Assembly (NCBI GenBank): GCA_977017645.1
Contig: OZ360228.1
Span: 87,420,001 to 87,484,000, forward strand
DNA from: Torpedo marmorata
Taxonomy: Eukaryota
DNA length: 64,000 nt
Direction: 5' to 3'
A model generated the notes under the pieces. The model searched no databases. It worked only from the letters and a program-made list of their open reading frames with translations, and was not told the DNA's origin. Both the position numbers and the translations under genes were made by a program. Positions 5,508 to 64,000 of the stretch are shown here, piece after piece; position 1 is the stretch's first letter, and each line of letters begins with the position of its first letter.

Positions 5508-5513
5508 TTGGCT

Positions 5514-13339: not shown

Positions 13340-13392
13340 GTTCAGTCCAATGCTTAAAAGATGCTGAGACACATCCTGGAGAACATGATTCT
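13340..13392 (+). CDS. AHNAK2: AHNAK2-like coding exon (equivalent of exon 2)
   Basis: ttgcAG|...|GTaagt; 53 nt, phase 1 to 0; (G)SVQCLKDAETHPGEHDS, resembling human GSV...DDHS; phase fits the next exon. Confidence 0.65.
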
Positions 13393-14354: not shown

Positions 14355-14459
14355 GTGTGTGAGTTGCCAACAGAATTTGTAGAAACTGTTAGACCAAGGC
14401 CTCAAGGATCTTCACCAGTATATGACTACTCACTGACTGAAGAATACAAGGACAGAAAC
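14355..14459 (+). CDS. AHNAK2: AHNAK2-like coding exon (exon 3 equivalent)
   Basis: cttcgcAG|...|GTatgt; 105 nt; VCELPTEFVETVRPRPQGSSPVYDYSLTEEYKDRN contains the RPRPQGSSPVY motif of the AHNAK2 N-terminus. Confidence 0.9.
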
Positions 14460-23525: not shown

Positions 23526-23633
23526 GTGCTAGAGGAAATACCAGCCAAAGTATCTACTGATATTACAGACCATAAGCAAGAATTAGAAAATTTGTCAAAG
23601 AAACAATTTCCTGCAAACATGAGTAGCAAAGTG
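23526..23633 (+). CDS. AHNAK2: AHNAK2-like coding exon (exon 4 equivalent)
   Basis: tgtgcAG|...|GTaggt; 108 nt, phase 0-0; VLEEIPAKVSTDITDHKQELENLSKKQFPANMSSKV. Confidence 0.8.
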
Positions 23634-23762: not shown

Positions 23763-23919
23763 GACGAAAAGGAAGAGGATGTTGTGGAAGTATTTGTGAA
23801 CACAGATGTTGAAAAGGGTGCAAGTGGCTTCAGTGTTAAAGGTGGAGAAAAGGATGGGATATTTATTAAACATGTTCTGAAAGAATCTCCTGCTGCAAAA
23901 CGTCTAAGTATGAGAGAAG
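23763..23919 (+). CDS. AHNAK2: AHNAK2-like exon, first half of PDZ-like domain (exon 5 equivalent)
   Basis: ttttttcAG|...|GTaaaa; 157 nt, phase 0-1; DEKEEDVVEVFVNTDVEKGASGFSVKGGEKDGIFIKHVLKESPAAKRLSMRE-G matches the periaxin/AHNAK2 PDZ pattern (GASGYSVTGGG..GIFVKQVLKDS.AAK). Confidence 0.95.
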
Positions 23920-24764: not shown

Positions 24765-24934
24765 GTGATCAACTTATCAGTGCTACAATCTATTTTGATA
24801 ATGTCAAATATGAAGATGCACTGAAGATTTTGCAGTACTCAGAACCATACAAAATGCAATATTGCCTGAAACGAACAATATCTGGTACTATAGTATCTGA
24901 GGCAGCTGAAGGAAAAGGAATGAAGACTAATGCG
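24765..24934 (+). CDS. AHNAK2: AHNAK2-like exon, second half of PDZ-like domain (exon 6 equivalent)
   Basis: ccatcAG|...|GTaggt; 170 nt, phase 1-0; [57 protein letters not shown] ([16 protein letters not shown] as in AHNAK2). Confidence 0.95.
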
Positions 24935-28600: not shown

Positions 28601-29045
28601 TCTACTTCAATCATTTAAAAACACACAGATCCCTCTCTACTTCAATCATTTAAAAACACCCAGATCCCTCTCTACTTCAATCATTTAAAAACACCCAGAT
28701 CCCTCTCTACTTCAATCATTTAAAAACACCCAGATCCCTCTCTACTTCAATCATTTAAAAACACCCAGATCCCTCTCTACTTCACTCATTTAAAAACACC
28801 CAGATCCCTCTCTACTTCACTCATTTTCTGTCACACTCCACTTTGATACTAATCTGCCTTTTGATTTCTCATGTGAAGTGCATGACCTCAGATTTTCCCA
28901 CACTTTAAACAACCTTTTTCCTTCTACCACCTTATGATATGTCTTTTCCATTAGTTATCAGAACTTTATTGGGATAAATTTCAATGGGCTGAACCTTACT
29001 GGCCAAAGCCTGCCCAGTATCCCATTTGCAATCTCCCTGTGACCT
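25680..29045 (-). mobile_element. Decayed CR1 LINE 3' portion, split by an internal satellite
   Basis: CR1-like tail (acaagaatacaagaacattagaaaataggagc) at the left; antisense ORF2 C-terminal remnants (aactgtgggcagtattctaggtgtggcctcacc) continue on both sides of the satellite. Confidence 0.65.
26306..28826. repeat. 35-bp tandem satellite, ~72 copies
   Basis: Unit TCATTTAAAAACACCCAGATCCCTCTCTACTTCA(A/C); few variant sites; one short deletion near 27978. Confidence 0.97.
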
Positions 29046-37725: not shown

Positions 37726-40700
37726 GGAGCTGAAGAAGACTTTTTTATGAAACTCTATGGAAGTAAATCAAAAACAAGAGATATTTCTGAAGAATTTAAT
37801 GCAGAAGAAGGTCCAGAAATTCAAGAAATCATTCAGAAGGGAAAGATAAAGAAGGAAGAAGGACACGATGTCACCTTTTCTTGCCCCAAGTTTTCAGCTT
37901 TCAAAAAGTCAAAGGAACTAGAGAGATCTCACAGATTATCGGAACCAGAAGAACGTGATGAACATGGCATTACCACTACGTGCACAGATAGCGAATATCA
38001 TTTAAAATCAATGGAAACACCCCAAAAAGTGAAAAAAGGAAGAAAAATAAAACTACCACAAATTGGTAGAAGAGAGATAAACACAGGGAAAAAAGAAGCT
38101 TCTGAAGATGAAAAACAAGAAATTTTGATTGGAATCAAGGATTCTACTGCTGCAGAATGTGACACGCAAATAAATGTGGATGTTACACCACTAAAATCAA
38201 TAGACACCTTAATGATAACCACAAAACAAAATAAACAAATACTGGATAATCAAAGTGAACAAATGGATTGGGACAATGTGAACAGTAAATCCAAAGTCAT
38301 ATTGCCAAAACTCAAAATAGCTAAATTTGTACTTCCAGAACCAATTCTTACAACACAAGATATTGCAACCAAATTACCAGAGGAGAGAACATGCTCTCAA
38401 ACAATGCGACAGGATATTTCACAAAAAGAATTTAGCATTACAGATGTAAAAGATGAGGTCATTCCATTACCAAAGAAACATGAAGCAAGCGTCACTGATA
38501 TTTCAATTCAAACATCTGAAACAAAAAACAAAAAAGACAAGATTGAGAGGCAACAGAAAATAAAAGAACCCAAAATGAAAAAACCCAAAGGGAAAACATC
38601 TGCAACTCAGTCCAAGTCTTCTACCCTTGCAATTGATGTCAGTCTAATGAAAGTTAGCATTTCAAAACCAAGCACAGATAATGTGACAACAGAAGTGAAA
38701 ACAGTGACAAGAACGATGGAGAGTGAAAGCAAGAGTGGACCAAATGAGCAGCAAACCACTGTTCGAAGCGTGGATATCAGTAAGAAGAAACAGAACGGCA
38801 GAATTTCACAGAGCAACGTTCAAGGTGATATCAGAGAGAGAGAGCTGATGACAGCAGGACAAGAAACCAACAAATATGCAAACAATTCAAAAGAAATTCC
38901 AAGTAAAGAAACCAAGAGAGGAAGTAGAAGCCAAAAATCAAAAAATATAAAGCACAAACACGAATTTTCCCAATTTGAACAACAGGATACAAAAATGCAC
39001 TTACAAGCCAAGCCAGATGAAATTCTAAGCGGAACAAAATTGGGAATTACTCTGTCCGATATAACAACTCCAAATATTACTTTGATTCCCAGCCTGCCTA
39101 AATGTGTCACTAGTCAAGCAAAACTTGACAAAGATGTGAAGTTGATTGAACAAGATGACGATGAAAGCAAATTTCAAACAGAAATCTGTGCCAGAAGCAA
39201 ACATGTGGAGGAGCCAGAAGATGGTTTAAAAGTACCCAAGATTGAAAAGCCATCAATAGACAATGCACTTCCAAAGGTGGAAGGTAAATTGGATGTTGAT
39301 GTAGGGGTGTCAAAGCCTGAAATGGATGTTTCAGCTCCCAAACTCACAGTGGACATGAAGGTTCCAGGGACAGACATCCATGCCCCAACAATAGATGTGG
39401 ATATTGACTCAGGTGACATGATGATGAAATATCACGGTGGGAAGTTCAAACATCCGTCGACGAAAATGCCATCACATGGAATAACACTTCCCAAATTGAA
39501 AGGTGGAGATGCAGATGTGGGTTTGAAGAAGCCAGAAGCTGATCTCACTGCTGGAGGTATAGATGTGTCAGGGCCAGAAGCAGGTCTTAAAATGCCCAAG
39601 AAAAAGATACCATCAATTGATATTGAACTTCCAAAGGTGGAAGATAATTTAGATGTTGATGTGTGTATGTCAAAACATGAAATGAATGTTTCAGTTCCAG
39701 AACTGACAGTGGACATGAAAGTTCCAGGGACAGTCAGCCATGCACCAACAACAGATGCAGATGTTAAGGCAGACGACGTAACAATGAAAGAACATGGCAG
39801 TAAGTTCAAAATTCCGTCCATGAAAATGCCGTCATTTGGATTTACTCTTCCCAAGTTCAAAGGTAAAGATGTGGATGTGGGTCTGAAGAAGCCAGATGTG
39901 GACTTATCACTGAAAAAGCCAGATGTTGATATTTCACTGAAAAAGCCTGAAGTGGACACAAAGAGTGAAATGCTGGATGTTGCTGCTACAGAGGATGATG
40001 ATGAGATGTTGACTGCAGATGTTGCAATTAAAAGCAAAGGAAAGAACATCAAAATACCTAAATTTAAAGGGCCATTAATTGGGATTACGGCACCTGATTT
40101 GACACCTCCGAAAATGAGCCTTGACGTGAGCCTGCCCAAGATTGACATTTCTCTCTCTAAAAAAGATGGAGATTTCAAGATGCCAGAAGGAGATATAAAA
40201 GCGGGCAAGTTAGAAGCTGATCTCGAGGCGAGAGTCAAAGATGTTTCAGGCCCAGAAATGGGTTATAAAATGCCCAAGATTGAGAAACAATCCATTGAAA
40301 TGGAACTTCCAAAGGTGGAAGGTAAATTGGATGTTGATGTGGGGATGTCGAAGCCTGATCTGGATGATTCAGCTCCAGAACTGACAGTGGACATGAATGC
40401 TCCGGTAACTCACATCCATGCACCAACAATAGACGCAGATGTTGACACAGCCGACCTAAAACTGAAAGTTCATGGCGGTAAGTTTAAACTTCCATCCATG
40501 AAAATGCCGTCATTAGGGATTAATCTTCCCACCTTCAAAGGTAAAGATGTGGATGTGGGACTGAAAAAGCCAGATGTAGACATTTCACTGAAAAAGCCAG
40601 ATGTGGACATTTCACTGCATAAGCCTGAAGAGGAAGTAAAGAGTGAAATACTGGATGTGGCTGCTACAGAGGGTGATGTTGACATGTTCACTGCCGATTT

Positions 40701-43700
40701 TAATATTAAAGACAAAGGAAAGAAAATAAAAATACCTAAATTTGAAGGGCCATCACTTGGGATTACTGCACCTCATCTGAAATCTCAGGAAATGAGCCTT
40801 GATGTGAGCCTACCCAAAGTTGACATTTCTCTCCCTAAAACAGATGTGGATATCAAGTTGCCAGAAGGGGATATAAAAGCGGGCAAGTTAGAAGCTAATC
40901 TCGAGGCAAGAGTCAAAGATGTTTCAGGCCAGGAAACGGGTTATAAAATGCCCAAGATTGAGAAACAATCCATTGAAATGGTACTTCCAACGGTGGAAGG
41001 TAAATTTGATGTTGATTTGGGTACATCGAAACCTGAACTGGATGTTTCAGGTCCAGAACTGACAGTGGACATGAATGCTCCGGTGACTTACATCCATGCA
41101 CCAACAATAGACGCAGATGTTGACACAGCCGACCTAACAATGAAAGAACATGGCAGTAAGTTTAAAATTCCGTCCATGAAAATGCCATCATTTGAATTTA
41201 CTCTTCCCAAGTTCAAAGGTAAAGATGTGGATGTGGGTCTGAAGAAGGCAGATGTGGATTTATCACTGGAAAAGTCAGATGTGGATATTTCACTGAAAAA
41301 GCCTAAAGTGGACACAAAGAGTGAAATGCTGGATGTTGCTGCTACAGAGGATGATGATGAGATGTTGACTGCAGATGTTGATATTAAAAGCAAAGGAAAG
41401 AAAATCAAAATACCTAAATTTAAAGGGCCATTAATTGGGATTACTGCACCTGATTTGACACCTCCGAAAATGAGCCTTGATGTGAGACTGCCCAAGATGG
41501 ACATTTCTCTCTCTAAAACAGATGGAGATTTCAAGATGCCAGAAGGAGATATAAAAGCGGGCAAGTTAGAAGCTGATCTCGTGGCGAGAGTCAAAGATGT
41601 TTCAGGCCCAGAAATGGGTTATAAAATGCCCAAGATTGAGAAACAATCCATTGAAATGGAACTTCCAAAGGTGGAAGGTAAATTGGATGTTGATGTGGGG
41701 ATGTCGAAGCCTGATCTGGATGATTCAGCTCCAGAACTGACAGTGGACATGAATGCTCCGGTGACTCACATCCATGCACCAACAATAGACGAGGATGTTG
41801 ACACAGCCGACCTAAAAATGAAAGATCATGTCGGTAAGTTTAAACTTCCATCCATGAAAATGCTGTCATTTGGGATTAATCTTCCCACCTTCAAAGGTAA
41901 AGATGTGGATGTGGGACTGAAAAAGCCAGATGTGGACATTTCACTGAAAAAGCCAGATGTGGACATTTCACTGCATAAGCCTGAAGCGTACGTAAAGAGT
42001 GAAATGCTGGATGTGGCTGCTACAGAGGGTGATGATGACATGTTCACTGCAGATTTTAATATTAAAGGCAAAGGAAAGAAAATCAAAATACCTAAATTTG
42101 AAGGGCCATCACTTGGGATTAATGCACCTCATCTGAAATTTCAGGAAATGAGCCTTGATGTAAGTCTGCCCAAGGTTGACATTTCTCTCCCTAAAACAGA
42201 TGGGGATTTCAAGTTGCCAGAAGGAGATATAAAAGCGGACAAGTTAGAAGCTGATCTCGAGGCGAGAGTCAAAGATGTTTCAGGCCCAGAAATTGGTTAT
42301 AAAATGCCCAAGATTGAGAAACAATCCATTGAAATGGAACTTCCAAAGGTGGAAGGTAAATTGGATGTTGATGTGGGGATGTTGAAGCCTGATCTGGATG
42401 ATTCAGCTCCAGAACTGACAGTGGACATGAATGCTCCGGTAACTCACATCCATGCACCAACAATAGACGCAGATGTTGACACAGCCGACCTAAAACTGAA
42501 AGATTATGGCGGTAAGTTTAAACTTCCATCCATGAAAATGCCGTCATTAGGGATTAATCTTCCCACCTTCAAAGGTAAAGATGTGGATGTGGGACTGAAA
42601 AAGCCAGATGTGGACATTTCACTGAAAAAGCCAGATGTGGACATTTCACTGAAAAAGCCTGAAGAGTACGTAAAGAGTGAAATACTGGATGTGGCTGCTA
42701 CAGAGGGTGATGTTGACATGTTCACTGCCGATTTTAATATTAAAGGCAAAGGAAAGAAAATAAAAATACCTAAATTTGAAGGGCCATCACTTGGGATTAC
42801 TGCACCTCATCTGAAATCTCAGGAAATGAGCCTTGATGTGAGCCTGCCCAAAGTTGACATTTCTCTCCCTAAAACAGATGTGGATATCAAGTTGCCAGAA
42901 GGGGATATAAAAGCGGGCAAGTTAGAAGCTAATCTCGAGGCAAGAGTCAAAGATGTTTCAGGCCAGGAAACGGGTTATAAAATGCCCAAGATTGAGAAAC
43001 AATCCATTGAAATGGTACTTCCAACGGTGGAAGGTAAATTTGATGTTGATTTGGGTACATCGAAACCTGAACTGGATGTTTCAGGTCCAGAACTGACAGT
43101 GGACATGAATGCTCCGGTGACTTACATCCATGCACCAACAATAGACGCAGATGTTGACACAGCCGACCTAACAATGAAAGAACATGGCAGTAAGTTTAAA
43201 ATTCCGTTCATGAAAATGCCATCATTTGAATTTACTCTTCCCAAGTTCAAAGGTAAAGATGTGGATGTGGGTCTGAAGAAGGCAGATGTGGACTTATCAC
43301 TGGAAAAGTCAGATGTGGATATTTCACTGAAAAAGCCTAAAGTGGACACAAAGAGTGAAATGCTGGATGTTGCTGCTACAGAGGATGATGATGAGATGTT
43401 GACTGCAGATGTTGATATTAAAAGCAAAGGAAAGAAAATCAAAATACCTAAATTTAAAGGGCCATTAATTGGGATTACTGCACCTGATTTGACACCTCCG
43501 AAAATGAGCCTTGATGTGAGACTGCCCAAGATGGACATTTCTCTCTCTAAAACAGATGGAGATTTCAAGATGCCAGAAGGAGATATAAAAGCGGGCAAGT
43601 TAGAAGCTGATCTCGTGGCGAGAGTCAAAGATGTTTCAGTACCAGAAATGGGTTATAAAATGCCCAAGATTGAGAAACAATCCATTGAAATGGAACTTCC

Positions 43701-46700
43701 AAAGGTGGAAGGTAAATTGGATGTTGATGTGGGGATGTCGAAGCCTGATCTGGATGATTCAGCTCCAGAACTGACAGTGGACATGAATGCTCCGGTAACT
43801 CACATCCATGCACCAACAATAGACGCAGATGTTGACACAGCCGACCTAAAAATGAAAGATCATGGCGGTAAGTTTAAACTTCCATCCATGAAAATGCTAT
43901 CATTTGGGATTAATCTTCCCACCTTCAAAGGTAAAGATGTGGATGTGGGACTGAAAAAGCCAGATGTGGACATTTCACTGAATAAGCCAGATGTGGACAT
44001 TTCACTGCATAAGCCTGAAGCGTACGTAAAGAGTGAAATGCTGGATGTGGCTGCTACAGAGGGTGATGTTGACATGTTCACTGCAGATTTTAATATTAAA
44101 GGCAAAGGAAAGAAAATCAAAATACCTAAATTTGAAGGGCCATCACTTGGGATTACTGCACCTCATCTGAAATTTCAGGAAATGAGCCTTGATGTAAGTC
44201 TGCCCAAGGTTGACATTGCTCTCCCTAAAACAGATGGGGATTTCAAGTTGCCAGAAGGAGATATAAAAGCGGACAAGTTAGAAGCTGATCTCGAGGTGAG
44301 AGTCAAAGATGTTTCAGGCCCAGAAATTGGTTATAAAATGCCCAAGATTGAGAAACAATCCATTGAAATGGAACTTCCAAAGGTGGAAGGTAAATTGGAT
44401 GTTGATGTGGGGATTTCGAAGCCTGATCTGGATGATTCAGCTCCAGAACTGACAGTGGACATTGATGCTCCGGTGACTCACATCCACGCACCACCAATAG
44501 ACGCAGATGTTGACACAGCCGACCTAAAAGTGAAAGATCATGGCGGTAAGTTTAAACTTCCATCCATGAAAATACCGTCATTTGGGATTAATCTTCCCAA
44601 GTTCAAAGGTAAAGATGTGGATGTGGGACTGAAAAAGCCAGATGTGGACATTTCACTGAAAAAGCCAGATGTGGACATTTCACTGCATAAGCCTGAAGAG
44701 TACGTAAAGAGTGAAATGCTGGATGTTGCTGCTACAGAGGATGATGATGAGATGTTGACTGCAGATGTTGATATTAAAAGCAAAGGAAAGAAAATCAAAA
44801 TACCTAAATTTAAAGGGCCATTAATTGGGATTACTGCACCTGATTTGACACCTCCGAAAATGAGCCTTGATGTGAGCCTGACCAAGATTGACATTTCTCT
44901 CTCTAAAAAAGATGGAGATTTCAAGATGCCAGAAGGAGATATAAAAGAGGGCAAGTTAGAAGCTGATCTCGAGGCGAGAGTCAAAGATGTTTCAGGCCCA
45001 GAAATGGGTTATAAAATGCACATGATTGAGAAACAATCCATTGAAATGGAACTTCCAAAGGTGGAAGGTAAATTGGATGTTGATGTGGGGATGTTGAAGC
45101 CTGATCTGGATGATTCAGCTCCAGAACTGACAGTGGACATGAATGCTCCGGTGACTCACATCCATGCACCAACAATAGACGCAGATGTTGACATAGCCGA
45201 CCTAAAAATGAAAGATCATGGCGGTAAGTTTAAACTTCCATCCATGAAAATGCTGTCATTTGGGATTAATCTTCCCACCTTCAAAGGTAAAGATGTGGAT
45301 GTGGGACTGAAAAAGCCAGATGTGGACATTTCACTGAAAAAGCCAGATGTGGACATTTCACTGCATAAGCCTGAAGCGTACGTAAAGAGTGAAATGCTGG
45401 ATGTGGCTGCTACAGAGGGTGATGATGACATGTTCACTGCAGATTTTAATATTAACGGCAAAGGAAAGAAAATCAAAATACCTAAATTTGAAGGGCCATC
45501 ACTTGGGATTACTGCACCTCATCTGAAATTTCAGGAAATGAGCCTTGATGTAAGTCTGCCCAAGGTTGACATTTCTCTCCCTAAAACAGATGGGGATTTC
45601 AAGTTGCCAGAAGGAGATATAAAAGCGGACAAGTTAGAAGCTGATCTCGAGGCGAGAGTCAAAGATGTTTCAGGCCCAGAAATTGGTTATAAAATGCCCA
45701 AGATTGAGAAACAATCCATTGAAATGGAACTTCCAAAGGTGGAAGGTAAATTGGATGTTGATGTGGGGATGTCGAAGCCTGATCTGGATGATTCAGCTCC
45801 AGAACTGACAGTGGACATGAATGCTCCGGTAACTCACATCCATGCACCAACAATAGACGCAGATGTTGACACAGCCGACCTAAAACTGAAAGATCATGGC
45901 GGTAAGTTTAAACTTCCATCCATGAAAATGCCGTCATTAGGGATTAATCTTCCCACCTTCAAAGGTAAAGATGTGGATGTGGGACTGAAAAAGCCAGATG
46001 TGGACATTTCACTGAAAAAGCCAGATGTGGACATTTCACTGCATAAGCCTGAAGAGGAAGTAAAGAGTGAAATACTGGATGTGGCTGCTACAGAGGGTGA
46101 TGTTGACATGTTCACTGCCGATTTTAATATTAAAGGCAAAGGAAAGAAAATAAAAATACCTAAATTTGAAGGGCCATCACTTGGGATTACTGCACCTCAT
46201 CTGAAATCTCAGGAAATGAGCCTTGATGTGAGCCTGCCCAAAGTTGACATTTCTCTCCCTAAAACAGATGTGGATATCAAGTTGCCAGAAGGGGATATAA
46301 AAGCGGGCAAGTTAGAAGCTAATCTCGAGGCAAGAGTCAAAGATGTTTCAGGCCAGGAAACGGGTTATAAAATGCCAAAGATTGAGAAACAATCCATTGA
46401 AATGGTACTTCCAACGGTGGAAGGTAAATTTGATGTTGATTTGGGTACATCGAAACCTGAACTGGATGTTTCACATCCAGAACTGACAGTGGACATGAAT
46501 GCTCCGGTGACTTACATCCATGCACCAACAATAGACGCAGATGTTGACACAGCCGACCTAACAATGAAAGAACATGGCAGTAAGTTTAAAATTCCGTTCA
46601 TGAAAATGCCATCATTTGAATTTACTCTTCCCAAGTTCAAAGGTAAAGATGTGGATGTGGGTCTGAAGAAGGCAGATGTGGACTTATCACTGGAAAAGTC

Positions 46701-49700
46701 AGATGTGGATATTTCACTGAAAAAGCCTAAAGTGGACACAAAGAGTGAAATGCTGGATGTTGCTGCTACAGAGGATGATGATGAGATGTTGACTGCAGAT
46801 GTTGATATTAAAAGCAAAGGAAAGAAAATCAAAATACCTAAATTTAAAGGGCCATTAATTGGGATTACTGCACCTGATTTGACACCTCCGAAAATGAGCC
46901 TTGATGTGAGACTGCCCAAGATGGACATTTCTCTCTCTAAAACAGATGGAGATTTCAAGATGCCAGAAGGAGATATAAAAGCGGGCAAGTTAGAAGCTGA
47001 TCTCGTGGCGAGAGTCAAAGATGTTTCAGTACCAGAAATGGGTTATAAAATGCCCAAGATTGAGAAACAATCCATTGAAATGGAACTTCCAAAGGTGGAA
47101 GGTAAATTGGATGTTGATGTGGGGATGTCGAAGCCTGATCTGGATGATTCAGCTCCAGAACTGACAGTGGACATGAATGCTCCGGTAACTCACATCCATG
47201 CACCAACAATAGACGCAGATGTTGACACAGCCGACCTAAAAATGAAAGATCATGGCGGTAAGTTTAAACTTCCATCCATGAAAATGCTATCATTTGGGAT
47301 TAATCTTCCCACCTTCAAAGGTAAAGATGTGGATGTGGGACTGAAAAAGCCAGATGTGGACATTTCACTGAATAAGCCAGATGTGGACATTTCACTGCAT
47401 AAGCCTGAAGCGTACGTAAAGAGTGAAATGCTGGATGTGGCTGCTACAGAGGGTGATGTTGACATGTTCACTGCAGATTTTAATATTAAAGGCAAAGGAA
47501 AGAAAATCAAAATACCTAAATTTGAAGGGCCATCACTTGGGATTACTGCACCTCATCTGAAATTTCAGGAAATGAGCCTTGATGTAAGTCTGCCCAAGGT
47601 TGACATTGCTCTCCCTAAAACAGATGGGGATTTCAAGTTGCCAGAAGGAGATATAAAAGCGGACAAGTTAGAAGCTGATCTCGAGGCGAGAGTCAAAGAT
47701 GTTTCAGGCCCAGAAATTGGTTATAAAATGCCCAAGATTGAGAAACAATCCATTGAAATGGAACTTCCAAAGGTGGAAGGTAAATTGGATGTTGATGTGG
47801 GGATTTCGAAGCCTGATCTGGATGATTCAGCTCCAGAACTGACAGTGGACATTGATGCTCCGGTGACTCACATCCACGCACCACCAATAGACGCAGATGT
47901 TGACACAGCCGACCTAAAAGTGAAAGATCATGGCGGTAAGTTTAAACTTCCATCCATGAAAATACCGTCATTTGGGATTAATCTTCCCAAGTTCAAAGGT
48001 AAAGATGTGGATGTGGGACTGAAAAAGCCAGATGTGGACATTTCACTGAAAAAGCCAGATGTGGACATTTCACTGCATAAGCCTGAAGAGTACGTAAAGA
48101 GTGAAATGCTGGATGTTGCTGCTACAGAGGATGATGATGAGATGTTGACTGCAGATGTTGATATTAAAAGCAAAGGAAAGAAAATCAAAATACCTAAATT
48201 TAAAGGGCCATTAATTGGGATTACTGCACCTGATTTGACACCTCCGAAAATGAGCCTTGATGTGAGCCTGACCAAGATTGACATTTCTCTCTCTAAAAAA
48301 GATGGAGATTTCAAGATGCCAGAAGGAGATATAAAAGAGGGCAAGTTAGAAGCTGATCTCGAGGCGAGAGTCAAAGATGTTTCAGGCCCAGAAATGGGTT
48401 ATAAAATGCACAAGATTGAGAAACAATCCATTGAAATGGAACTTCCAAAGGTGGAAGGTAAATTGGATGTTGATGTGGGGATGTTGAAGCCTGATCTGGA
48501 TGATTCAGCTCCAGAACTGACAGTGGACATGAATGCTCCGGTGACTCACATCCATGCACCAACAATAGACGCAGATGTTGACATAGCCGACCTAAAAATG
48601 AAAGATCATGGCGGTAAGTTTAAACTTCCATCCATGAAAATGCTGTCATTTGGGATTAATCTTCCCACCTTCAAAGGTAAAGATGTGGATGTGGGACTGA
48701 AAAAGCCAGATGTGGACATTTCACTGAAAAAGCCAGATGTGGACATTTCACTGCATAAGCCTGAAGCGTACGTAAAGAGTGAAATGCTGGATGTGACTGC
48801 TACAGAGGGTGATGATGACATGTTCACTGCAGATTTTAATATTAACGGCAAAGGAAAGAAAATCAAAATACCTAAATTTGAAGGGCCATCACTTGGGATT
48901 ACTGCACCTCATCTGAAATTTCAGGAAATGAGCCTTGATGTAAGTCTGCCCAAGGTTGACATTTCTCTCCCTAAAACAGATGGGGATTTCAAGTTGCCAG
49001 AAGGAGATATAAAAGCGGACAAGTTAGAAGCTGATCTCGAGGCGAGAGTCAAAGATGTTTCAGGCCCAGAAATTGGTTATAAAATGCCCAAGATTGAGAA
49101 ACAATCCATTGAAATGGAACTTCCAAAGGTGGAAGGTAAATTGGATGTTGATGTGGGGATGTCGAAGCCTGATCTGGATGATTCAGCTCCAGAACTGACA
49201 GTGGACATGAATGCTCCGGTAACTCACATCCATGCACCAACAATAGACGCAGATGTTGACACAGCCGACCTAAAACTGAAAGATCATGGCGGTAAGTTTA
49301 AACTTCCATCCATGAAAATGCCGTCATTAGGGATTAATCTTCCCACCTTCAAAGGTAAAGATGTGGATGTGGGACTGAAAAAGCCAGATGTGGACATTTC
49401 ACTGAAAAAGCCAGATGTGGACATTTCACTGCATAAGCCTGAAGAGGAAGTAAAGAGTGAAATACTGGATGTGGCTGCTACAGAGGGTGATGTTGACATG
49501 TTCACTGCCGATTTTAATATTAAAGGCAAAGGAAAGAAAATAAAAATACCTAAATTTGAAGGGCCATCACTTGGGATTACTGCACCTCATCTGAAATCTC
49601 AGGAAATGAGCCTTGATGTGAGCCTGCCCAAAGTTGACATTTCTCTCCCTAAAACAGATGTGGATATCAAGTTGCCAGAAGTGGATATAAAAGCGGGCAA

Positions 49701-52700
49701 GTTAGAAGCTAATCTCGAGGCAAGAGTCAAAGATGTTTCAGGCCAGGAAACGGGTTATAAAATGCCCAAGATTGAGAAACAATCCATTGAAATGGTACTT
49801 CCAACGGTGGAAGGTAAATTTGATGTTGATTTGGGTACATCGAAACCTGAACTGGATGTTTCACATCCAGAACTGACAGTGGACATGAAAGCTCCAGGGA
49901 CTTACATCCATGCACCAACAATAGATGCAGATGTTGAAACAGCCGACCAAACAATGAAAGAACATGGCAGTAAGTTTAAAATTCCGTCCATGAAAATGCC
50001 ATCATTTGGATTTACTCTTCCTAAGTTCAAAGGTAAAGATGTGGATGTGGGTCTGAAGAAGCCAGATGTGGACTTATCACTGGAAAAGCCAGATGTGGAC
50101 ATTTCACTGCATAAGCCTGAAGCGTACGTCAAGAGTGAAATGCTGGATGTGGCTGCTACAGAGGGTGATGTTGACATGTTCACTGCAGATTTTAATATTA
50201 AAGGCAAAGGAAAGAAAATAAAAATACCTAAATTTAAAGGGCCATTAATTGGGATTACTGCACCTGATTTGACACCTCCGAAAATGAGCCTTGATGTGAG
50301 ACTGCCCAAGATGGACATTTCTCTCTCTAAAACAGATGGAGATTTCAAGATGCCAGAAGGAGATATAAAAGCGGGCAAGTTAGAAGCTGATCTCGTGGCG
50401 AGAGTCAAAGATGTTTCAGGCCCAGAAATGGGTTATAAAATGCCCAAGATTGAGAAACAATCCATTGAAATGGAACTTCCAAAGGTGGAAGGTAAATTGG
50501 ATGTTGATGTGGGGATGTCGAAGCCTGATCTGGATGATTCAGCTCCAGAACTGACAGTGGACATGAATGCTCCGGTAACTCACATCCATGCACCAACAAT
50601 AGACGCAGATGTTGACACAGCCGACCTAAAAATGAAAGATCATGGCGGTAAGTTTAAACTTCCATCCATGAAAATGCTGTCATTTGGGATTAATCTTCCC
50701 ACCTTCAAAGGTAAAGATGTGGATGTGGGACTGAAAAAGCCAGATGTGGACATTTCACTGAAAAAGCCAGATGTGGACATTTCACTGCATAAGCCTGAAG
50801 CGTACGTAAAGAGTGAAATGCTGGATGTGGCTGCTACAGAGGGTGATGTTGACATGTTCACTGCAGATTTTAATATTAAAGGCAAAGGAAAGAAAATCAA
50901 AATACCTAAATTTGAAGGGCCATCACTTGGGATTACTGCACCTCATCTGAAATTTCAGGAAATGATCCTTGATGTAAGTCTGCCCAAGGTTGACATTTCT
51001 CTCCCTAAAACAGATGGGGATTTCAAGTTGCCAGAAGGAGATATAAAAGCGGACAAGTTAGAAGCTGATCTCGAGGCGAGAGTCAAAGATGTTTCAGGCC
51101 CAGAAATTGGTTATAAAATGCCCAAGATTGAGAAACAATCCATTGAAATGGAACTTCCAAAGGTGGAAGGTAAATTGGATGTTGATATGGGGATTTCGAA
51201 GCCTGATCTGGATGATTCAGCTCCAGAACTGACAGTGGACATTGATGCTCCGGTGACTCACATCCACGCACCACCAATAGACGCAGATGTTGACACAGCC
51301 GACCTAAAAATGAAAGATCATGGCGGTAAGTTTAAACTTCCATCCATGAAAATACCGTCATTTGGGATTAATCATCCCAAGTTCAAAGGTAAAGATGTGG
51401 ATGTGGGACTGAAAAAGCCAGATGTGGACATTTCACTGAAAAAGCCAGATGTGGACATTTCACTGCATAAGCCTGAAGAGTACGTAAAGAGTGAAATGCT
51501 GGATGTTGCTGCTACAGAGGATGATGATGAGATGTTGACTGCAGATGTTGATATTAAAAGCAAAGGAAAGAAAATCAAAATACCTAAATTTAAAGGGCCA
51601 TTATTTGGGATTACTGCACCTGATTTGACACCTCCGAAAATGAGCCTTGATGTGAGCCTGCCCAAGATTGACATTTCTCTCTCTAAAAAAGATGGAGATT
51701 TCAAGATGCCAGAAGGAGATATAAAAGAGGGCAAGTTAGAAGCTGATCTCGAGGCGAGAGTCAAAGATGTTTCAGGCCCAGAAATGGGTTATAAAATGCA
51801 CAAGATTGAGAAACAATCCATTGAAATGGAACTTCCAAAGGTGGAAGGTAAATTGGATGTTGATGTGGGGATGTCGAAGCCTGATCTGGATGATTCAGCT
51901 CCAGAACTGACAGTGGACATGAATGCTCCGGTGACTCACATCCATGCACCAACAATAGACGCAGATGTTGACACAGCCGACCTAACAATGAAAGAACATG
52001 GCAGTAAGTTTAAAATTCCGTCCATGAAAATGCCATCATTTGAATTTACTCTTCCCAAGTTCAAAGGTAAAGATGTGGAGGTGGGTCTGAAGAAGGCAGA
52101 TGTGGACTTATCACTGGAAAAGCCAGATGTGGACATTTCACTGAAAAAGCCAGATGTGGACATTTCACTGAAAAAGCCAGATGTGGACATTTCACTGCAA
52201 AAGCCTGAAGAGGTCGTAAAGAGTGAAATGCTGGATGTGGCTGCTACAGAGGATGATGTTGACATGTTCACTGCAGAATTTGATATTAAAGGCAAAGGAA
52301 AGAAAATAAAAATACCTAAATTTGAAGGGCCATCACTTGGGATTACTGCACCTCACCTGAAATCTCAGAAACTGACCCTTGATGTGAGCATGCCCAAGGT
52401 TGACCTTTCTCTCCCTAAAACAGATGGGGATTTCAAGTTGCCTGAAGGAGATATAAAAGCGGACAAGTTAGAAGCTGATCTAGAGGCGAGAGTCAAAGAT
52501 GTTTCAGGCCCAGAAATTGGTTATAAAATGCCCAAGATTGAGAAACAATCCATTGAAATGGAACTTCCAAAGGTGGAAGGTAAATTGGATGTTGATGTGG
52601 GGATTTCGAAGCCTGATCTGGTTGATTCAGCTCCAGAACTGACAGTGGACATGAATGCTCCGGTAACTCACATCCACGCACCAACAATAGACGCAGATGT

Positions 52701-55700: not shown

Positions 55701-58700
55701 TATTAAAAGCAAAGGAAAGAAAATCAAAATACCTAAATTTAAAGGGCCATTAATTGGGATTACTGCAAGTGATTTGACACCTCCGAAAATGAGCCTTGAC
55801 GTGAGCCTGCCCAAGATTGACATTTCTCTCTCTAAAACAGATGGAGATTTCAAGATGCCAGAAGGAGATATAAAAGCGGGCAAGTTAGAAGCTGATCTCG
55901 AGGCGAGAGTCAAAGATGTTTCAGGCCCAGAAATGGGTTATAAAATGCACAAGATTGAGAAACAATCCATTGAAATGGAACTTCCAAAGGTGGAAGGTAA
56001 ATTGGATGTTGATGTGGGGATGTCGAAGCCTGATCTGGATGATTCAGCTCCAGAACTGACAGTGGACATGAATGCTCCGGTGACTCACATCCATGCACCA
56101 ACAATAGACGCAGATGTTGACACAGCCGACCTAAAACTGAAAGATCATGGCGGTAAGTTTAAAATTCCGTCCATGAAAATGCCATCATTTGAATTTACTC
56201 TTCCCAAGTTCAAAGGTAAAGATGTGGAGGTGGGTCTGAAGAAGGCAGATGTGGACTTATCACTGGAAAAGCCAGATGTGGACATTTCACTGAAAAAGCC
56301 AGATGTGGACATTTCACTGAAAAAGCCAGATGTGGACATTTCACTGAAAAAGCCAGATGTGGACATTTCACTGCAAACGCCTGAAGAGGTCGTAAAGAGT
56401 GAAATGCTGGATGTGGCTGCTACAGAGGATGATGTTGACATGTTCACTGCAGAATTTGATATTAAAGGCAAAGGAAAGAAAATAAAAATACCTAAATTTG
56501 AAGGGCCATCACTTGGGATTACTGCACCTCACCTGAAATCTCAGGAAATGAGCCTTGATGTGAGCCTGCCCAAGGTTGACCTTTCTCTCCCTAAAACAGA
56601 TGGGGATTTCAAGTTGCCAGAAGGAGATATAAAAGCGGACAAGTTAGTAGCTGATCTAGAGGCGAGAGTCAAAGATGTTTCAGGCCCAGAAATTGGTTAT
56701 AAAATGCCCAAGATTGAGAAACAATCCATTGAAATGGAACTTCCAAAGGTGGAAGGTAAATTGTATGTTGATGTGGGGATATCGAAGCCTGATCTGGATG
56801 ATTCAGCTCCAGAACTGACAGTGGACATGAATGCTCCGGTAACTCACATCCATGCACCAACAATAGACGCAGATGTTGACACAGCCGACCTAACAATGAA
56901 AGAACATGGCAGTAAGTTTAAAATTCCGTCCATGAAAATGCCATCATTTGAATTTACTCTTCCCAAGTTCAAAGGTAAAGATGTGGATGTGGGTCTGATG
57001 AAGGCAGGTGTGGACTTATCACTGGAAAAGCCAGATGTGGATATTTCTCTGAAAAAGCCTGAAGTGGACACAAAGAGTGAAATGCTGGATGTTGCTGCTA
57101 CAGAGGATGATGATGAGATGTTGACTGCAGATGTTGATATTAAAAGCAAAGGAAAGAAAATCAAAATACCTAAATTTAAAGGGCCATTAATTGGGATTAC
57201 AGCACCTGATTTGACACCTCCGAAAATGAGCCTTGATGTGAGCCTGCCCAAGATGGACATTTCTCTCTCTAAAACAGATGGAGATTTCAAGATGCCAGAA
57301 GGAGATATAAAAGCGGGCAAGTTAGAAGCTGATCTCGAGGCGAGAGTCAAAGATGTTTCAGGCCCAGAAATGGGTTATAAAATGCCCAAGATTGAGAAAC
57401 AATCCATTGAAATGGAACTTCCAAAGGTGGAAGATAAATTGGATGTTGATGTGGGGATGTCGAAGCCTGATCTGGATGATTCAGCTCCAGAACTGACAGT
57501 GGACATGAATGCTCCGGTGACTCACATCCATGCACCATCAATAGACGCAGATGTTGACACAGCCGACCTAAAAATGAAAGATCATGGCGGTAAGTTTAAA
57601 CTTCCATCCATGAAAATGCCGTCATTTGGGATTAATCTTCCCAAGTTCAAAGGTAAAGATGTGGATGTGGGACTGAATAAGCCAGATGTGGACATTTCAC
57701 TGAAAAAGCCAGATGTGGACATTTCACTGCATAAGCCTGAAGAGTACGTAAAGAGTGAAATGCTGGATGTTGCTGCTACAGAGGATGATGATGAGATGTT
57801 GACTGCAGATGTTGATATTAAAAGCAAAGGAAAGAAAATCAAAATACCTAAATTTAAAGGGCCATTAATTGGGATTACTGCAACTGATTTGACACCTCCG
57901 AAAATGAGCCTTGACGTGAGCCTGCCCAAGATTGACATTTCTCTCTCTAAAACAGATGGAGATTTCAAGATGCCAGAAGGAGATATAAAAGCGGGCAAGT
58001 TAGAAGCTGATCTCGAGGCGAGAGTCAAAGATGTTTCAGGCCCAGAAATGGGTTATAAAATGCACAAGATTGAGAAACAATCCATTGAAATGGAACTTCC
58101 AAAGGTGGAAGGTAAATTGGATGTTGATGTGGGGATGTCGAAGCCTGATCTGGATGATTCAGCTCCAGAACTGACAGTGGACATAAATGCTCCGGTGACT
58201 CACATCCATGCACCATCAATAGACGCAGATGTTGACACAGCCGACCTAAAAATGAAAGATCATGGCGGTAAGTTTAAACTTCCATCCATGAAAATGCCGT
58301 CATTTGGGATTAATCTTCCCACCTTCAAAGGTCAAGATGTGGATGTGGGACTGAAAAAGCTAGATGTGGACATTTCACTGAAAACGCCAGATGTGGACAT
58401 TTCACTGAAAAAGCCAAATGTGGACATTTCACTGAAAAAGCCTGAAGAGGACGTAAAGAGTGAAATGCTGGAGGTGGCTGCTACAGAGGATGATGTTGAC
58501 ATGTTCACTGCAGATTTTGATATTAAAGGCAAAGGAAAGAAAATAAAAATATCTAAATTTAAAGGGCCATCACTTGGGATTACTGCACCTCATCTGAAAT
58601 CTCAGGAAATGAGCCTTGATGTGAGCGTGCCCAAGGTTGACATTTCTTTCCCTAAAACAGATGTGGATATCAAGTTGCCAGAAGGGGATATAAAAGCGGG

Positions 58701-61700
58701 CAAGTTAGAAGCTGATCTCGAGGCTAGAGTCAAAGATGTTTCAGGCCCAGAAACGGGTTATAAAATGCCCAAGATTGAGAAACAATCCATTGAAATGGTA
58801 CTTCCAACGGTGGAAGGTAAATTTGATGTTGATTTGGGGATGTCGAAGCCTGATCTGGATGATTCAGCTCCAGAACTGACAGTGGACATGAATGCTCCGG
58901 TAACTCACATCCATGCACCAACAATAGACGCAGATGTTGACACAGCCGACCTAACAATGAAAGAACATGGCAGTAAGTTTAAAATTCCGTCCATGAAAAT
59001 GCCATCATTTGAATTCACTCTTCCCAAGTTCAAAGGTAAAGATGTGGATGTGGGTCTGAAGAAGCCAGATGTGGACTTATCACTGGAAAAGCCAGATGTG
59101 GATATTTCACTGAAAAAGCCTGAAGTGGACACAAAGAGTGAAATGCTGGATGTTGCTGCTACAGAGGATGATGATGAGATGTTGACTGCAGATGTTGATA
59201 TTAAAAGCAAAGGAAAGAAAATCAAAATACCTAAATTTAAAGGGCCATTAATTGGGATTACTGCACCTGATTTGACACCTCCGAAAATGAGCCTTGATGT
59301 GAGCCTGCCCAAAATGGACATTTCTCTCTCTAAAATAGATGGAGATTTCAAGATGCCAGAAGGAGATATAAAAGCGGGCAAGTTAGAAGCTGATGTCGAA
59401 GCTAGAGTCAAAGATGTTTCAGGCCCAGAAACGAGTTATAAAATGCCCAAGATTGAGAAACAATCCATTGAAATGGAACTTCCAACGGTGGAAGGTAAAT
59501 TTGATGTTGATTTGGGTACATCGAAACCTGAACTGGATGTTTCACATCCAGAACTGACAGTGCACATGAAAGCTCCAGGGACTTACAACCATGCACCAAC
59601 AATAGATGCAGATGTTGAAACAGCCGACCAAACAATGAAAGTACATGGCAGTAAGTTTAAAATTCCGTCCATAAAAATGCCATCATTTGGATTTACTCTT
59701 CCCAAGTTCAAAGGTAAAGATGTGGATGTAGGACAGAAAAAGCCTGATGTGGACATTTCACTGAAAAAGCCAGATGTGGACATTTCACTGCATAAGCCTG
59801 AAGAGTACGAAAAGAGTGAAATGCTGGATGTGCCTGCTACAGAGGGTGATGTTGACATGTTCACTGCCGATTTTAATATTAAAGGCAAAGGAAAGAAAAT
59901 AAAAATACCTAAATTTGAAGGGCCATCACTTGGGATTACCGCACCTCATCTGAAATCTCAGAAACTGAGCCTTGATGTAAGCCTGCCCAAGGTTGACATT
60001 TCTCTCCATAAAACAGATGGGGATTTCAAGTTGCCAGAAGGAGATATAAAAGCGGACAAGTTAGATGCTGATCTCGAGGCGAGAGTCAAAGATGTTTCAG
60101 GCCCAGAAATGGGTTATAAAATGCCCAAGATTGAGAAACAATCCATTGAAATGGAACTTCCAAAGGTGGAAGCTAAATTGGATGTTGATGTGGGGATGTC
60201 GAAGCCTGATCTGGATGATTCAGCTCCAGAACTGACAGTGGACATGAATGCTCCGGTGACTCACATCCATGCACCAACAATAGACGCAGATGTTGACACA
60301 GCCGACCTAACAATGAAAGAACATGGCAGTAAGTTTAAAATTCCGTCCATGAAAATGCCATCATTTGAATTTACTCTCCCCAAGTTCAAAGGTAAAGATG
60401 TGGATGTGGGTCTGAAAAAGCCAGATGTGGACTTATCACTGGAAAAGCCAGATGTGGATATTTCACTGAAAAAGCCTGAAGTGGACACAAAGAGTGAAAT
60501 GCTGGATGTTGCTGCTACAGAGGATGATGATGAGATGTTGACTGCAGATGTTGATATTAAAAGCAAAGGAAAGAAAATCAAAATACCTAAATTTAAAGGG
60601 CCATTAATTGGGATTACTGCACCTGATTTGACACCTCCGAAAATGAGCCTTGACTTGAGCCTGCCCAAGATTGACAGTTCTCTCTCTAAAACAGATGGAG
60701 ATTTCAAGATGCCAAAAGGAGATATAAAAGCGGGCAAGTTAGAAGCTGATCTCGAGGCGAGAGTCAAAGATGTTTCAGGCCCAGAAATGGGTTATAAAAT
60801 GCACAAGATTGAGAAACAATCCATTGAAATGGAACTTCCAAAGGTGGAAGGTAAATTGGATGTTGATGTTGGGATCTCGAAGCCTGATCTGGATGATTCA
60901 GCACCAGAAATGACAGTGGACATGAATGCTCCGGTGAGTCACATCCATGCACCAACAATAGACGAGGATGTTGACACAGCCGACCTAACAATGAAAGAAC
61001 ATGGCAGTAAGTTTAAAATTCTGTCCATGAAAATGCCATCATTTGAATTTACTCTTCCCAAGTTCAAAGGTAAAGATGTGGATGTGAGTCTGAAGAAGGC
61101 AGATGTGGACTTATCACTGGAAAAGCCAGATGTGGACATTTCACTGAAAAAGCCAGATGTGGACATTTCACTGAAAAAGCCAGATGTGGACATTTCACTG
61201 CAAAAGCCTGAAGAGGACGTAAAGAGTGAAATGCTGGATGTGGCTGCTACAGAGGATGATGTTGACATGTTCACTGCAGATTTTGATATTAAAGGCAAAG
61301 GAAAGAAAATAAAAATATCTAAATTTAAAGGGCCATCACTTGGGATTACTGCACCTCAACTGAAATCTCAGGAAATGAGCCTTGATGTGAGCCTGCCCAA
61401 GGTTGACATTTCTCTCCCTAAAACAGATGGGGATTTCAAGTTGCCAGAAGGGCAAATAAAAGCGGGCAAGTTAGAAGCTGATCTCGAAGCTAGAGTCAAA
61501 GATGTTTCAGGCCCAGAAACGAGTTATAAAATGCCCAAGATTGAGAAACAATCCATTGAAATGGTACTTCCAACGGTGGAAGGTAAATTTGATGTTGATT
61601 TGGGTACATCGAAACCTGAACTGGATGTTTCACATCCAGAACTGACAGTGGACATGAATGCTCCGGTGACTCACATCCATGCACCATCAATAGATGCAGA

Positions 61701-64000
61701 TGTTGAAACAGCCGACCAAACAATGAAAGTACATGGCAGTAAGTTTAAAATTCCGTCCATGAAAATGCCATCATTTGGATTTACTCTTCCCAAGTTCAAA
61801 GGTAAAGATGTGGGTCTGATGAAGCCAGATGTGGACTTATCTCTGGAAAAGCCAGATGTGGATATTTCAATGAAAAAGCCTGAAGTGGACACAAAGAGTG
61901 AAATGCTGGATGTTGCTGCTACAGAGGATGATGATGAGATGTTGACTGCAGATGTTGATATTAAAAGCAAAGGAAAGAAAATCAAAATACCTAAATTTAA
62001 AGGGCAATTAATTGGGATTACTGCACCTGATCTGACACCTCCGAAAATGAGCCTTGATGTGAGATTGCCCCAGGTTGACATTTCCCTCCATAAAACAGAT
62101 GTGGATTTCAAGTTGCCAGAAGGGCATAAGAAAGCCGATAAGTTAGAAGTTGATCTCCAGGCTGGAGTCATAGATGTGTCAGGCCCAGAAATGGTTCATA
62201 AAATGCACAAGATTGATAAATCATCCATTGAAATGGAACTTCCAAAGGTGGAAGGTAAATTTGATGTTGATGTGGGTATGTCGAAACCTGAACTGGATGT
62301 TTCAGGTCCAGAACTGACAGTGGACATGGAGGCTCCAGGGACTTACATCCATGCACCAACAATAGACGCAGATGTTGACACAGCCGACCTAACAATGAAA
62401 GAACATGGCAGTAAGTTTAAAATTCCGTCCATGAAAATGCCATCATTTGAATTTACTCTTCCCAAGTTCAAAGGTAAAGATGTGGATGTGGGTCTGAAGA
62501 AGGCAGATGTGGACTTATCACTGGAAAAGCCAGATGTGGATATTTCACTGAAAAAGCCTGAAGTGGACACAAAGAATGAAATGCTGGATGTTGCTGCTAC
62601 AGAGGATGATGATGAGATGTTGACTGCAGATGTTGATATTAAAAGCAAAGGAAAGAAAATCAAAATACCTGAATTTAAAGGGCCATCAATGGGGTATACT
62701 CCACCCGATGTGACAACTCCGAAAATGAGCCTGCCCAAGATTGACATTTCTCTCCCTAAAACAGATGTGGGTATCAAGTTTCCAGAAGGAGATATAAAAG
62801 CGGGCAAGTTAGAAGCTGATGTCGAGGCTGGAGTCAAAGATATTTCAGGCCCAGAAATGGCTTATAAAATGCCTAAGATTGAGAAACAATCCATTGAAAT
62901 GGAACTTCCAAAAGTGGAAGTTAAATTGGATGTTGATGTGGGGATGTCAAAGCCTGATCTGGATGTTTCAGCTCCAGAACTGACAGTGGACATGAATGCT
63001 CCGGTGACTCACATCCATGCATCAACAATAGACGCAGATGTTGACATAGCCGACCAAAAAATGAAAGATCATGGCGGTAAGTTTAAACTTCCATCCATGA
63101 AAATGAAATCATTTGGAATTAATGTTCCCACCTTCAAAGGTAAAGATGTGGATGTGAGTCTGAAGAAACCAGATGTGGACCTATCACTGAAAAAGCCAGA
63201 TGTGGACAGTTCACTGAAAAAGCCTGAACTGGACGTTCAGGCCGAAATGAATGATATCACTGCTCCAGAAGGTAATGTTGAGATGGACACTCCTGCCCAT
63301 TTTATGAAAAGCAGAGGAAAGAAATTCAAAATACCTAAATTTATAAGGCCACCAATTGGGTTTAAAGCGCCTGATCTGAAATCTCCAAAAATGAGCCTTG
63401 ATGTGAGCCTGCCCAAGGTTGATATTTCTCTCCCTAAAACAGATGTGGATTTCAAGTTGCCAGAAGGGGATATAAAAACAGAGAAGTTTGAAGCTGATAT
63501 CGTTGCTGGTGCCATGCATGTGACAGGTCCAGATTCAGGTCTTCAAATGCCCAAAATTGAAACGTCATCAATAGATATTGCCCCTCCAAAGGTGGAAGGT
63601 AAATTGGATGTTGCTGTGGGTGTTTCAAAGCCTGCACATGATGAATCAGCTCCTGAACGTTCAGTGGACATCACTGCGCCAAACTCTGATATCCATTCTC
63701 CAACAATCGATGCTGATATTGACTTGTCTGAACAGAAGACGAAAGGTAAATTCAAACTTCCATCTATTAACTTTCCATCATTTGGATTCTCTGTTCCCAA
63801 ATTCAAAGATCCTGATGTGGCTGTGGACATTAAGAAGCCCAATGTTGGTGTTTCATGTACAAACAATGACATGGAGGTAAAAGGTGATATTCTTAATGTA
63901 AGTGCTGCGGAGTGTGAGGTGAATTTAAACACACTGGATGCGGATATTGAAGGGAAAAGTGTGAAAATAAACCTTCCTAAATCTAAAGTTCCAATATCTG
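37726..64000 (+). CDS. AHNAK2: AHNAK2-like giant exon (exon 7 equivalent), open to window end, >8,750 codons
   Basis: cttctcctAG|GGA GCT GAA, phase 0 matching the preceding exon, frame +1. Early FSCPKFSAFKKSKELERSHRLSEPEERDEHGITTTCTDSE parallels AHNAK2 LSWPKF...RSHSSSE...DVSPTSTDTE, followed by KFKLPSMKMPSFG / PKVDISLP repeats. The track lists no frame +1 ORF here, which implies no stop; the last line still reads VKINLPKSKVPIS. Confidence 0.95.
39200..63900 (+). repeat. Coding tandem array, ~35 units of 678 bp (226 aa) plus degenerate ends
   Basis: Marker gtcaaagatgtttcaggcc recurs near 40235, 40913, 41591, 42269 and onward in steps of 678, with steps of 705/732/759 where the 27-bp KKPDVDISL sub-repeat is expanded and ~672/666 near the 3' end. 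Confidence 0.97.

Follow-up and report, generated by a model that had tools for sequence, protein, structure and literature searches.

Can one coding exon of a vertebrate run on for more than 26 kb without a stop, and to which gene would it belong? The question is raised by a 64,000-nt stretch of the genome of Torpedo marmorata (assembly GCA_977017645.1, contig OZ360228.1, positions 87,420,001 to 87,484,000), which we call the window. A first-pass annotation, made from the letters alone, had followed one open frame from position 37726 to the window's end and had assigned it to AHNAK2. The locus lies on C40 of a 6.22-Gb genome, and coordinates above 64000 are counted onward from the first base of the window. 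We consider it probable that the locus is a single AHNAK2 gene in which a 27,145-nt stretch likely forms one internal exon, and that the predicted protein of 9,507 residues is likely a long flexible scaffold. This is neither a new gene family nor a new mechanism but a known gene at an unusual extreme, and the size of the exon is a stronger point than the length of the protein.

The frame itself is as uninterrupted as the first-pass annotation had it. In frame +1, positions 37726-63999 hold 8,758 codons and 0 stops, while the other two plus-strand frames contain 634 and 963 stops. A canonical acceptor (TAG/G, the slash marking the junction) directly precedes 37726, and because a stop lies just 5' of this position in the same frame, the frame starts at the acceptor. 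Carried past the window, the translation ends at a stop 903 nt beyond the window's last base, at 64903, for a total of 9,059 codons, so the lower bound of about 8,950 aa (amino acids) proposed from the window alone comes close to the real size. No N occurs in the window or in the 100 kb on either side. Exon 7, as we call this exon below, is A-rich (35% A, 18% C), and at the local base composition the chance that even one 226-codon repeat unit stays open is P ~1e-7.

The read-through stop is preceded, at a distance of 33 nt, by a donor, CAG/GTACTG, at 64870. Exon 7 most likely ends at this donor, hence as an internal rather than a terminal exon. At 27,145 nt the exon is as exceptionally large as had been claimed. 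We placed the remaining exons by tblastn, using the terminal parts of four AHNAK2-type proteins from the database. P0002 is the Heptranchias perlo protein XP_067847768.1 (7,526 aa) and P0003 the AHNAK2 of the skate Amblyraja radiata (7,146 aa). The features are as follows.

Exon 1, C40:87362827-87362881, plus strand, upstream of the window: coding part from the ATG, 55 nt, 86% identical to residues 1-21 of P0003.
Exon 2, 13340..13392, plus strand: 53 nt, AG/GT ends, 85% identity to P0003.
Exon 3, 14355..14459, plus strand: 105 nt, 92% identity to P0003.
Exon 4, 23526..23633, plus strand: 108 nt.
Exon 5, 23763..23919, plus strand: 157 nt, first half of a PDZ domain of the AHNAK2/periaxin type, best match 4cn0.
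Exon 6, 24765..24934, plus strand: 170 nt, second half of the PDZ domain, phase-0 donor, best match 4cn0.
Exon 7, 37726..64000 plus 870 nt to the phase-1 donor at 64870 (C40:87457726-87484870), plus strand: giant coding exon of 27,145 nt, likely a single exon, from its open frame and splice sites.
Start of exon 7, 37726..39591, plus strand: basic, non-repetitive part (~500 aa) and a degenerate partial unit.
Tandem array in exon 7, 39592..64188, plus strand: 36 units, the last ending 188 nt past the window.
Youngest duplication in the array, 42670..49766, plus strand: two adjacent copies at a lag of 3,390 nt (5 units).
Exon 8, C40:87497603-87498333, plus strand, beyond the window: 243 codons to a TAA, with the conserved AHNAK2 C-terminal motifs.

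All 7 of the 7 introns in this eight-exon model are GT-AG. The first coding exon stands 57 kb upstream of the window, and exons 2-6 sum to 593 nt or 197.7 codons, matching the earlier estimate of about 197. The first-pass annotation had assumed the human layout of a single giant exon. The giant exon stands; the layout does not, as an intron and a last exon follow it, which is the less usual feature of the two. The conserved C-terminal block was found by tblastn at 77,602-78,570, outside the giant frame and 12.7 kb downstream, and the exon 8 acceptor at 77603 continues the frame from the donor at 64870. Exon 8 is single-copy and shares 50% identity with the final ~360 aa of P0002. Spliced in this way, the model predicts 9,507 aa and about 1,040 kDa (~1.04 MDa), while reading through the exon 7 donor would give 9,275 aa.

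The end of the protein differs from its relatives in one further respect. Exon 8 reaches an early TAA (L002:4331-4333) where the Heptranchias and Rhincodon proteins and P0273 continue. The sequence behind this TAA is homologous but frameshifted and decayed. The C-terminus is consequently about 137 aa shorter than that of Heptranchias, with 243 against 380 aa after the exon 7/8 junction.

Most of exon 7 is the tandem array. Exactly 678 nt (226 aa) is the length of 28 of its 36 units, the range is 642-759 nt, and all lengths are multiples of 3; the differences are mostly copies of a variable 27-nt sub-repeat. The mean identity of the units is 90.6%, and of 630 pairs just one is identical. Nested higher-order blocks of 3 and 5 units repeat the same unit types, and the most diverged units stand at the array edges, a pattern that we infer to be the one expected from unequal crossing-over.

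The assembly of this array has to be weighed. Two haplotypes could have been joined at the 5-unit block, in which case the true exon would be ~23.8 kb and the protein ~8,400 aa. The youngest duplication differs at 7 positions in ~3.7 kb (99.8% identical) at a lag of 3,390 nt and contains an exact match of 1,211 nt, an identity that allelic mis-joining could also produce, and the repeat number of mouse Ahnak2 was mis-assembled even in the reference GRCm39 (PMC12903361). This block is the sole one that could plausibly be an assembly duplication; every other duplication is of greater age and nested. In the genome the gene's unique 5' and 3' parts are single-copy, and the 27-kb frame carries no indel error. 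We therefore regard an over-count as unlikely. Even if the 5-unit duplication were removed, the exon would measure 23,755 nt and the protein ~8,380 aa, and such an exon would still exceed MUC16 exon 3 (>21,000 nt).

The variants among the units indicate what has been kept. In 34 units, the last two and most diverged being omitted, we counted 222 distinct single-base codon variants, of which 56 are synonymous, 166 non-synonymous and 0 are stops; 38 multi-base variants were not classed. The absence of stops is significant (0 vs 7.5 expected, P ~5e-4). Omega is 0.91, with a synonymous excess that is not significant (P = 0.30), although counting distinct variants puts recurrent synonymous changes too low and inflates omega, which tells against too neutral a reading. 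Omega falls within 0.80-1.04 when computed along a minimum spanning tree, with replacements that do not exceed the random level of conservation (mean BLOSUM62 -0.21 to -0.54 vs -0.37 expected). As stops are missing and amino-acid change is nearly neutral, it is frame and length that seem to be under selection rather than sequence: the frame is maintained while the residues drift.

These counts bear on the nature of the added units. With the same gene structure, the repeats could be folded modules forming a stacked beta-propeller, so that each added unit would be an added folded domain. The propeller model is a published prediction for AHNAKs, experimentally unproven (PMC8833689), and hydrophobic and acidic residues do alternate in the units, which have kept 52% identity with the Heptranchias units. 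Repeats and non-repeat flanks of the two proteins are equally distant (51-52%), while their PDZ domains are 91% identical. However, folded modules sit poorly with an omega near 1 and with replacements that are no more conservative than random. Nor is the period conserved. Among the 30 proteins examined, Heptranchias has a dominant period of 217 aa, chicken one of 366, turtles one of 386 and a cichlid one of 146 (146 to >=386 aa overall), a divergence wide enough that each lineage appears to homogenise its own unit. No Pfam family was found over the first 1,000 aa of the giant exon, and four weak Pfam hits in its last 900 aa had no significant stretch and were rejected as compositional. AlphaFold yielded no usable model and no predicted fold for one unit (pLDDT 42, pTM 0.11, the program's scores for local and overall confidence); this prediction was built on 17 similar sequences only, so that the low confidence is weak evidence of disorder and helps the flexible reading little. 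The array is composed of 34% charged residues with a net charge of -0.05 per residue and no Trp. On this evidence a chain of folded propellers appears improbable, and near-neutral residue change within a strictly kept frame favours the view of AHNAK repeats as flexible spacers.

Whether the 27,145 nt are spliced as one exon depends on its two ends. At the 5' end, four database proteins (P0002, P0003, P0091 and P0092) read across the exon 6/7 junction (24934/37726) in register, and the start of exon 7 is 51% identical to P0002 over 318 aa. At the 3' end, P0002 and a Rhincodon protein read across the exon 7/8 junction in register. Part of the exon 7 start is also present in four public sequencing runs (X1 to X4), none recorded as RNA. 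X3 and X4 belong to one study of another species, ~94% identical, and are presumed to be RNA from the splice that they contain. Each has one long contig beginning at L002:3600, three bases before the exon 8 acceptor, and these three bases, CAG, are common to the end of the intron and the end of exon 7; the contigs of X1 and X2 run across the acceptor. Aligned to the end of exon 7, X3 and X4 contigs (2,741 and 2,790 nt) break off at L001:872, where 74 and 91 of their letters lie on the exon 7 side. In length and depth they agree with the contigs that begin at L002:3600, and a comparison by eye pairs 26 of 30 letters of the loose ends with the start of exon 8. Past the exon 7 donor there is no cover by X3 or X4, while X1 continues to 1119. 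The contigs thus join the donor at 64870 to the exon 8 acceptor, and the exon 7-exon 8 junction is used in this related species, where exon 7 is therefore internal. The single uninterrupted exon is inferred from these two ends, the donor by way of the relative's contigs and the acceptor by homology.

Several points weigh against an exon that is spliced whole. No read or contig spans the array, the RNA-like cover being ~1.1 kb at the 3' end, and X3 and X4 are runs not recorded as RNA, from a single study and from another species. In addition, the array contains 45 GTRAGT and 22 G/GTRAG donor-like sites and the exon 17 AATAAA sites, none of them depleted relative to synonymous shuffles, so that shorter transcripts are possible. 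Over the whole exon the picture is mixed: AG/GTRAG occurs 1 time vs 11.9 expected, GTRAGT 46 vs 13 and AATAAA 17 vs 12.7, counts in which the 36 copies are not independent.

The main transcript might accordingly lack much of the array through in-frame internal splicing or polyadenylation, or exon 7 might be a terminal exon read through to 64903 (9,275 aa). Donor-like motifs in most units and the AATAAA sites of the exon would serve the former, and database models of Genypterus and Mustelus AHNAK list isoforms that differ by whole units; AATAAA sites 735-1,282 nt after the read-through stop would serve the latter. On the other hand, strong pyrimidine-tract acceptors within the exon number 0, with 0.08 expected. 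A terminal exon disagrees with the shark proteins P0002 and P0091, which continue into exon 8 sequence in register, and with X3 and X4, which show the spliced form alone at the 3' end and no cover past the donor; as contigs drop rare forms, a minor read-through form would be compatible with them. We judge either version of the main transcript to be quite improbable.

The assignment to AHNAK2 is well supported, and the locus appears to be the genome's single AHNAK2 gene. Searched against solved structures, the exon 5 part of the PDZ domain scores 46.7 bits to human AHNAK2 (4cn0) and 42.7 bits to periaxin, and the exon 6 part 53.9 and 51.5 bits. The PDZ domain is 91% identical to those of skate AHNAK2 and P0002, 68-72% to tetrapod AHNAK2 and 40-54% to AHNAK. 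In a PDZ tree of 29 rows (Gadus P0033 was omitted, having no PDZ hit) the locus groups with skate AHNAK2 (92/94), and a 100/100 split sets it apart from the AHNAK clade; this tree contains no named periaxin and leaves the paralogue on C74 unresolved among the AHNAK2 rows, which tempers the assignment. Among 89 long homologues the top two are chondrichthyan, at 51-52% (Heptranchias, 7,526 aa, and Amblyraja AHNAK2, 7,146 aa), and the others lie at 25-35%, a ranking that by itself indicates a shark or ray. The rest of the gene agrees with AHNAK2 as well. It has small exons before a giant one, with the added intron and last exon, and a central array of long Lys/Asp/Pro/Val-rich repeats whose top matches are AHNAK2 models. 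Both motifs of the conserved non-repetitive C-terminal block are present on exon 8; they recur in the AHNAK2 of turtles, birds and marsupials, and neither of the two AHNAK proteins checked has them.

The neighbourhood, for which the first-pass annotation had proposed a comparison with the PLD4 and CDCA4 genes of mammals, corresponds at the family level. Upstream of exon 1, at 180-340 kb, stand two SERTA genes. On the downstream side a PLD gene follows at 130 kb, in tail-to-tail orientation with AHNAK2, with a CEP170-family gene beyond it. In human, CDCA4, PLD4, CEP170B and AHNAK2 fall within one 422-kb interval (PMC6822181). The names of the individual paralogues are not established by this comparison. 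The PLD exons on C40 and on C74 both score higher to human PLD3 than to PLD4, which counts against a PLD4 label, and naming the PLD gene by best hit was abandoned as uninformative.

Two paralogues were considered for the locus and set aside. AHNAK has its own locus on C62, 85-94% identical to Mobula AHNAK, and is excluded for the present gene by the 100/100 split of the PDZ tree. A periaxin-like gene lies on C74, with 4cmz as its best solved match; the PDZ scores favour AHNAK2 at the present locus, by small margins, and periaxin on C74. Although the margins are small, the neighbouring PLD gene has its highest score to PLD3, which normally adjoins periaxin, and the closest protein P0002 is labelled 'AHNAK-like' by its source, an identity as periaxin or AHNAK is highly improbable given the separate AHNAK and periaxin-like loci, the C-terminal motifs shared with AHNAK2, and a CEP170-family gene that stands beside this locus and was not found on C74 (search counts being a floor).

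How far AHNAK2 has been extended here depends on the yardstick. Human AHNAK2 has 5,795 aa, 24 units of ~165 aa and a large exon of ~17,559 bp (PMC8833689, PMC10682155). It shares with the present gene the tripartite plan of PDZ domain, repeats and C-terminal block, the six small exons in front of the giant one and the conserved neighbourhood. The human giant exon is the last one and contains the C-terminal block, while here this block has its own last exon; the unit differs as well. In length the protein exceeds the human one by a factor of 1.64, and the exon by a factor of 1.55. The predicted 9,507 aa thus bear out the earlier claim of at least 1.5 times the human length. The human protein is a short yardstick, though, and the excess over the longest retrievable relatives is ~19-26%. 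Long relatives are not rare, which reduces the singularity of the protein: 27 of the 89 long AHNAK-family hits have at least 7,000 aa, and turtle and bird AHNAK2 reach 7,975 aa. The longest family hits are 7,914 aa among the 89, 7,526 among the best 150 of 380, and 7,975 among 53 cluster members. Two cluster members stand at 7,975 aa and the Natator cluster has an isoform X2 without the longer X1, so the protein database seems to be limited near 8,000 aa. We therefore do not claim the longest known AHNAK-family protein, since the database probably cannot show longer ones.

Annotation also appears to shorten these genes, as had been anticipated. The database entry for chicken AHNAK2 went from 4,240 aa in an older version to 7,168 aa in a more recent one, and that of the skate (P0003) stops within the repeats and lacks the C-terminal motifs. 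Database lengths of AHNAK2 would thus be limited by assembly, and probably by length caps, and the size range of the family under-counted. Compared with P0002, the Torpedo unit is 226 aa against ~217 aa and the protein 26% longer. The Heptranchias exon would measure ~21.1 kb if it shares the intron after the array, and the feature may be general in the group. AHNAK (desmoyokin) and periaxin have the same PDZ type and giant-exon plan at separate loci in this genome. The AHNAK frame has an ordinary 5,485 codons here; we therefore rejected a genome-wide inflation of giant exons and take the expansion to be specific to AHNAK2.

Among large exons in general, a 2012 survey of human genes lists MUC16 exon 3 (>21,000 nt), TTN (>17,000 nt) and other mucins as the largest internal exons, and large exons there are often penultimate (PMC3467050). 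Exon 7 (27,145 nt) is larger than these and likewise penultimate, A-rich and not a mucin, in a comparison with a survey confined to human and to 2012. We found no paper on AHNAK2 in cartilaginous fish and no vertebrate-wide record of exon size in the open-licence literature, outside which most subscription papers lie. If exon 7 is spliced whole, it would be a natural test of exon definition over 27 kb, beyond the human maximum given in that survey (PMC3467050). Tentatively, we can go one step further. Exon 7 could be one of the largest internal coding exons of vertebrates, recognised through an ordinary acceptor and a modest donor although dozens of donor-like and poly(A)-like sites lie within it; AHNAK2 exons of >21 kb could be general and unremarked in sharks and rays; and the intron after the array could make exon 7 a skippable cassette whose loss yields a PDZ-only regulator.

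A possible working of the gene can be proposed along the following lines. Unequal crossing-over would have enlarged the array by 1, 3 or 5 units at a time; since all unit lengths in nt are divisible by 3, such exchange leaves the frame intact. Selection would purge stops and frameshifts and tolerate most amino-acid changes, so that chain length and charge pattern might matter more than exact sequence. The PDZ domains of periaxin and AHNAK2 are intertwined dimers and the periaxin tail is predicted to be disordered (PMC7072810). By analogy with human AHNAK2, the PDZ domain may form a domain-swapped dimer here. This dimer would hold two long, largely unfolded and charge-balanced tails with repeated short sites for binding or modification, which would end in the conserved C-terminal motifs; AHNAK repeats are known to be methylated by SMYD2 (PMC8833689). 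The product would be a dimeric, flexible and multivalent scaffold, the length of which could change by whole units at little cost. Short isoforms exist for periaxin and AHNAK (PMC10682155, PMC7072810). Computed from the model, skipping of exon 7 shifts the frame and gives a product of 227 aa, which might be a PDZ-only form akin to short periaxin.

The chromosomal surroundings of the three family members are alike in one respect. AHNAK (C62:18.18-18.30 Mb) and the periaxin-like gene (C74:33.39-33.47 Mb) also stand tail-to-tail with a PLD-family gene, so all three members in the genome have a PLD neighbour. The two SERTA-domain genes upstream of AHNAK2 (C40:87022446 and C40:87181316; L025 and L023) are in tandem on the same strand, 160 kb apart.

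The introns of the gene hold several repetitive elements. A near full-length LINE (long interspersed nuclear element), which we read as L1-like, occupies 14741-20074 on the plus strand in intron 3, in the gene's own orientation; it starts ~280 nt after exon 3, and its endonuclease and reverse-transcriptase frames are broken by stops. Reverse-transcriptase frames of 654 and 789 codons lie on the minus strand at 34868-36829 and 8963-11329, the former ~900 nt upstream of the giant exon's acceptor. Intron 6 contains a 35-bp minisatellite at 26307-28826, with 72 copies, 96% matches and a strong C skew.

Two open frames of 1,332 and 1,320 codons, related to each other, follow downstream of the gene on the plus strand (L003:901-4896; L009:6728-L010:687) and resemble retroelement polyproteins. 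Within the window, at 5114-6000, lies a young element resembling a MITE (miniature inverted-repeat transposable element); its terminal inverted repeats are long, and a tandem array of 27 bp stands inside it. The element includes a 12-codon fragment resembling the start of the DMRT DM domain (PF00751, E 0.0034, below cut-off). The genome holds 1,543 candidate copies, of which the 40 scored are 98-100% identical, and the element is possibly a captured DMRT fragment amplified by a transposon.

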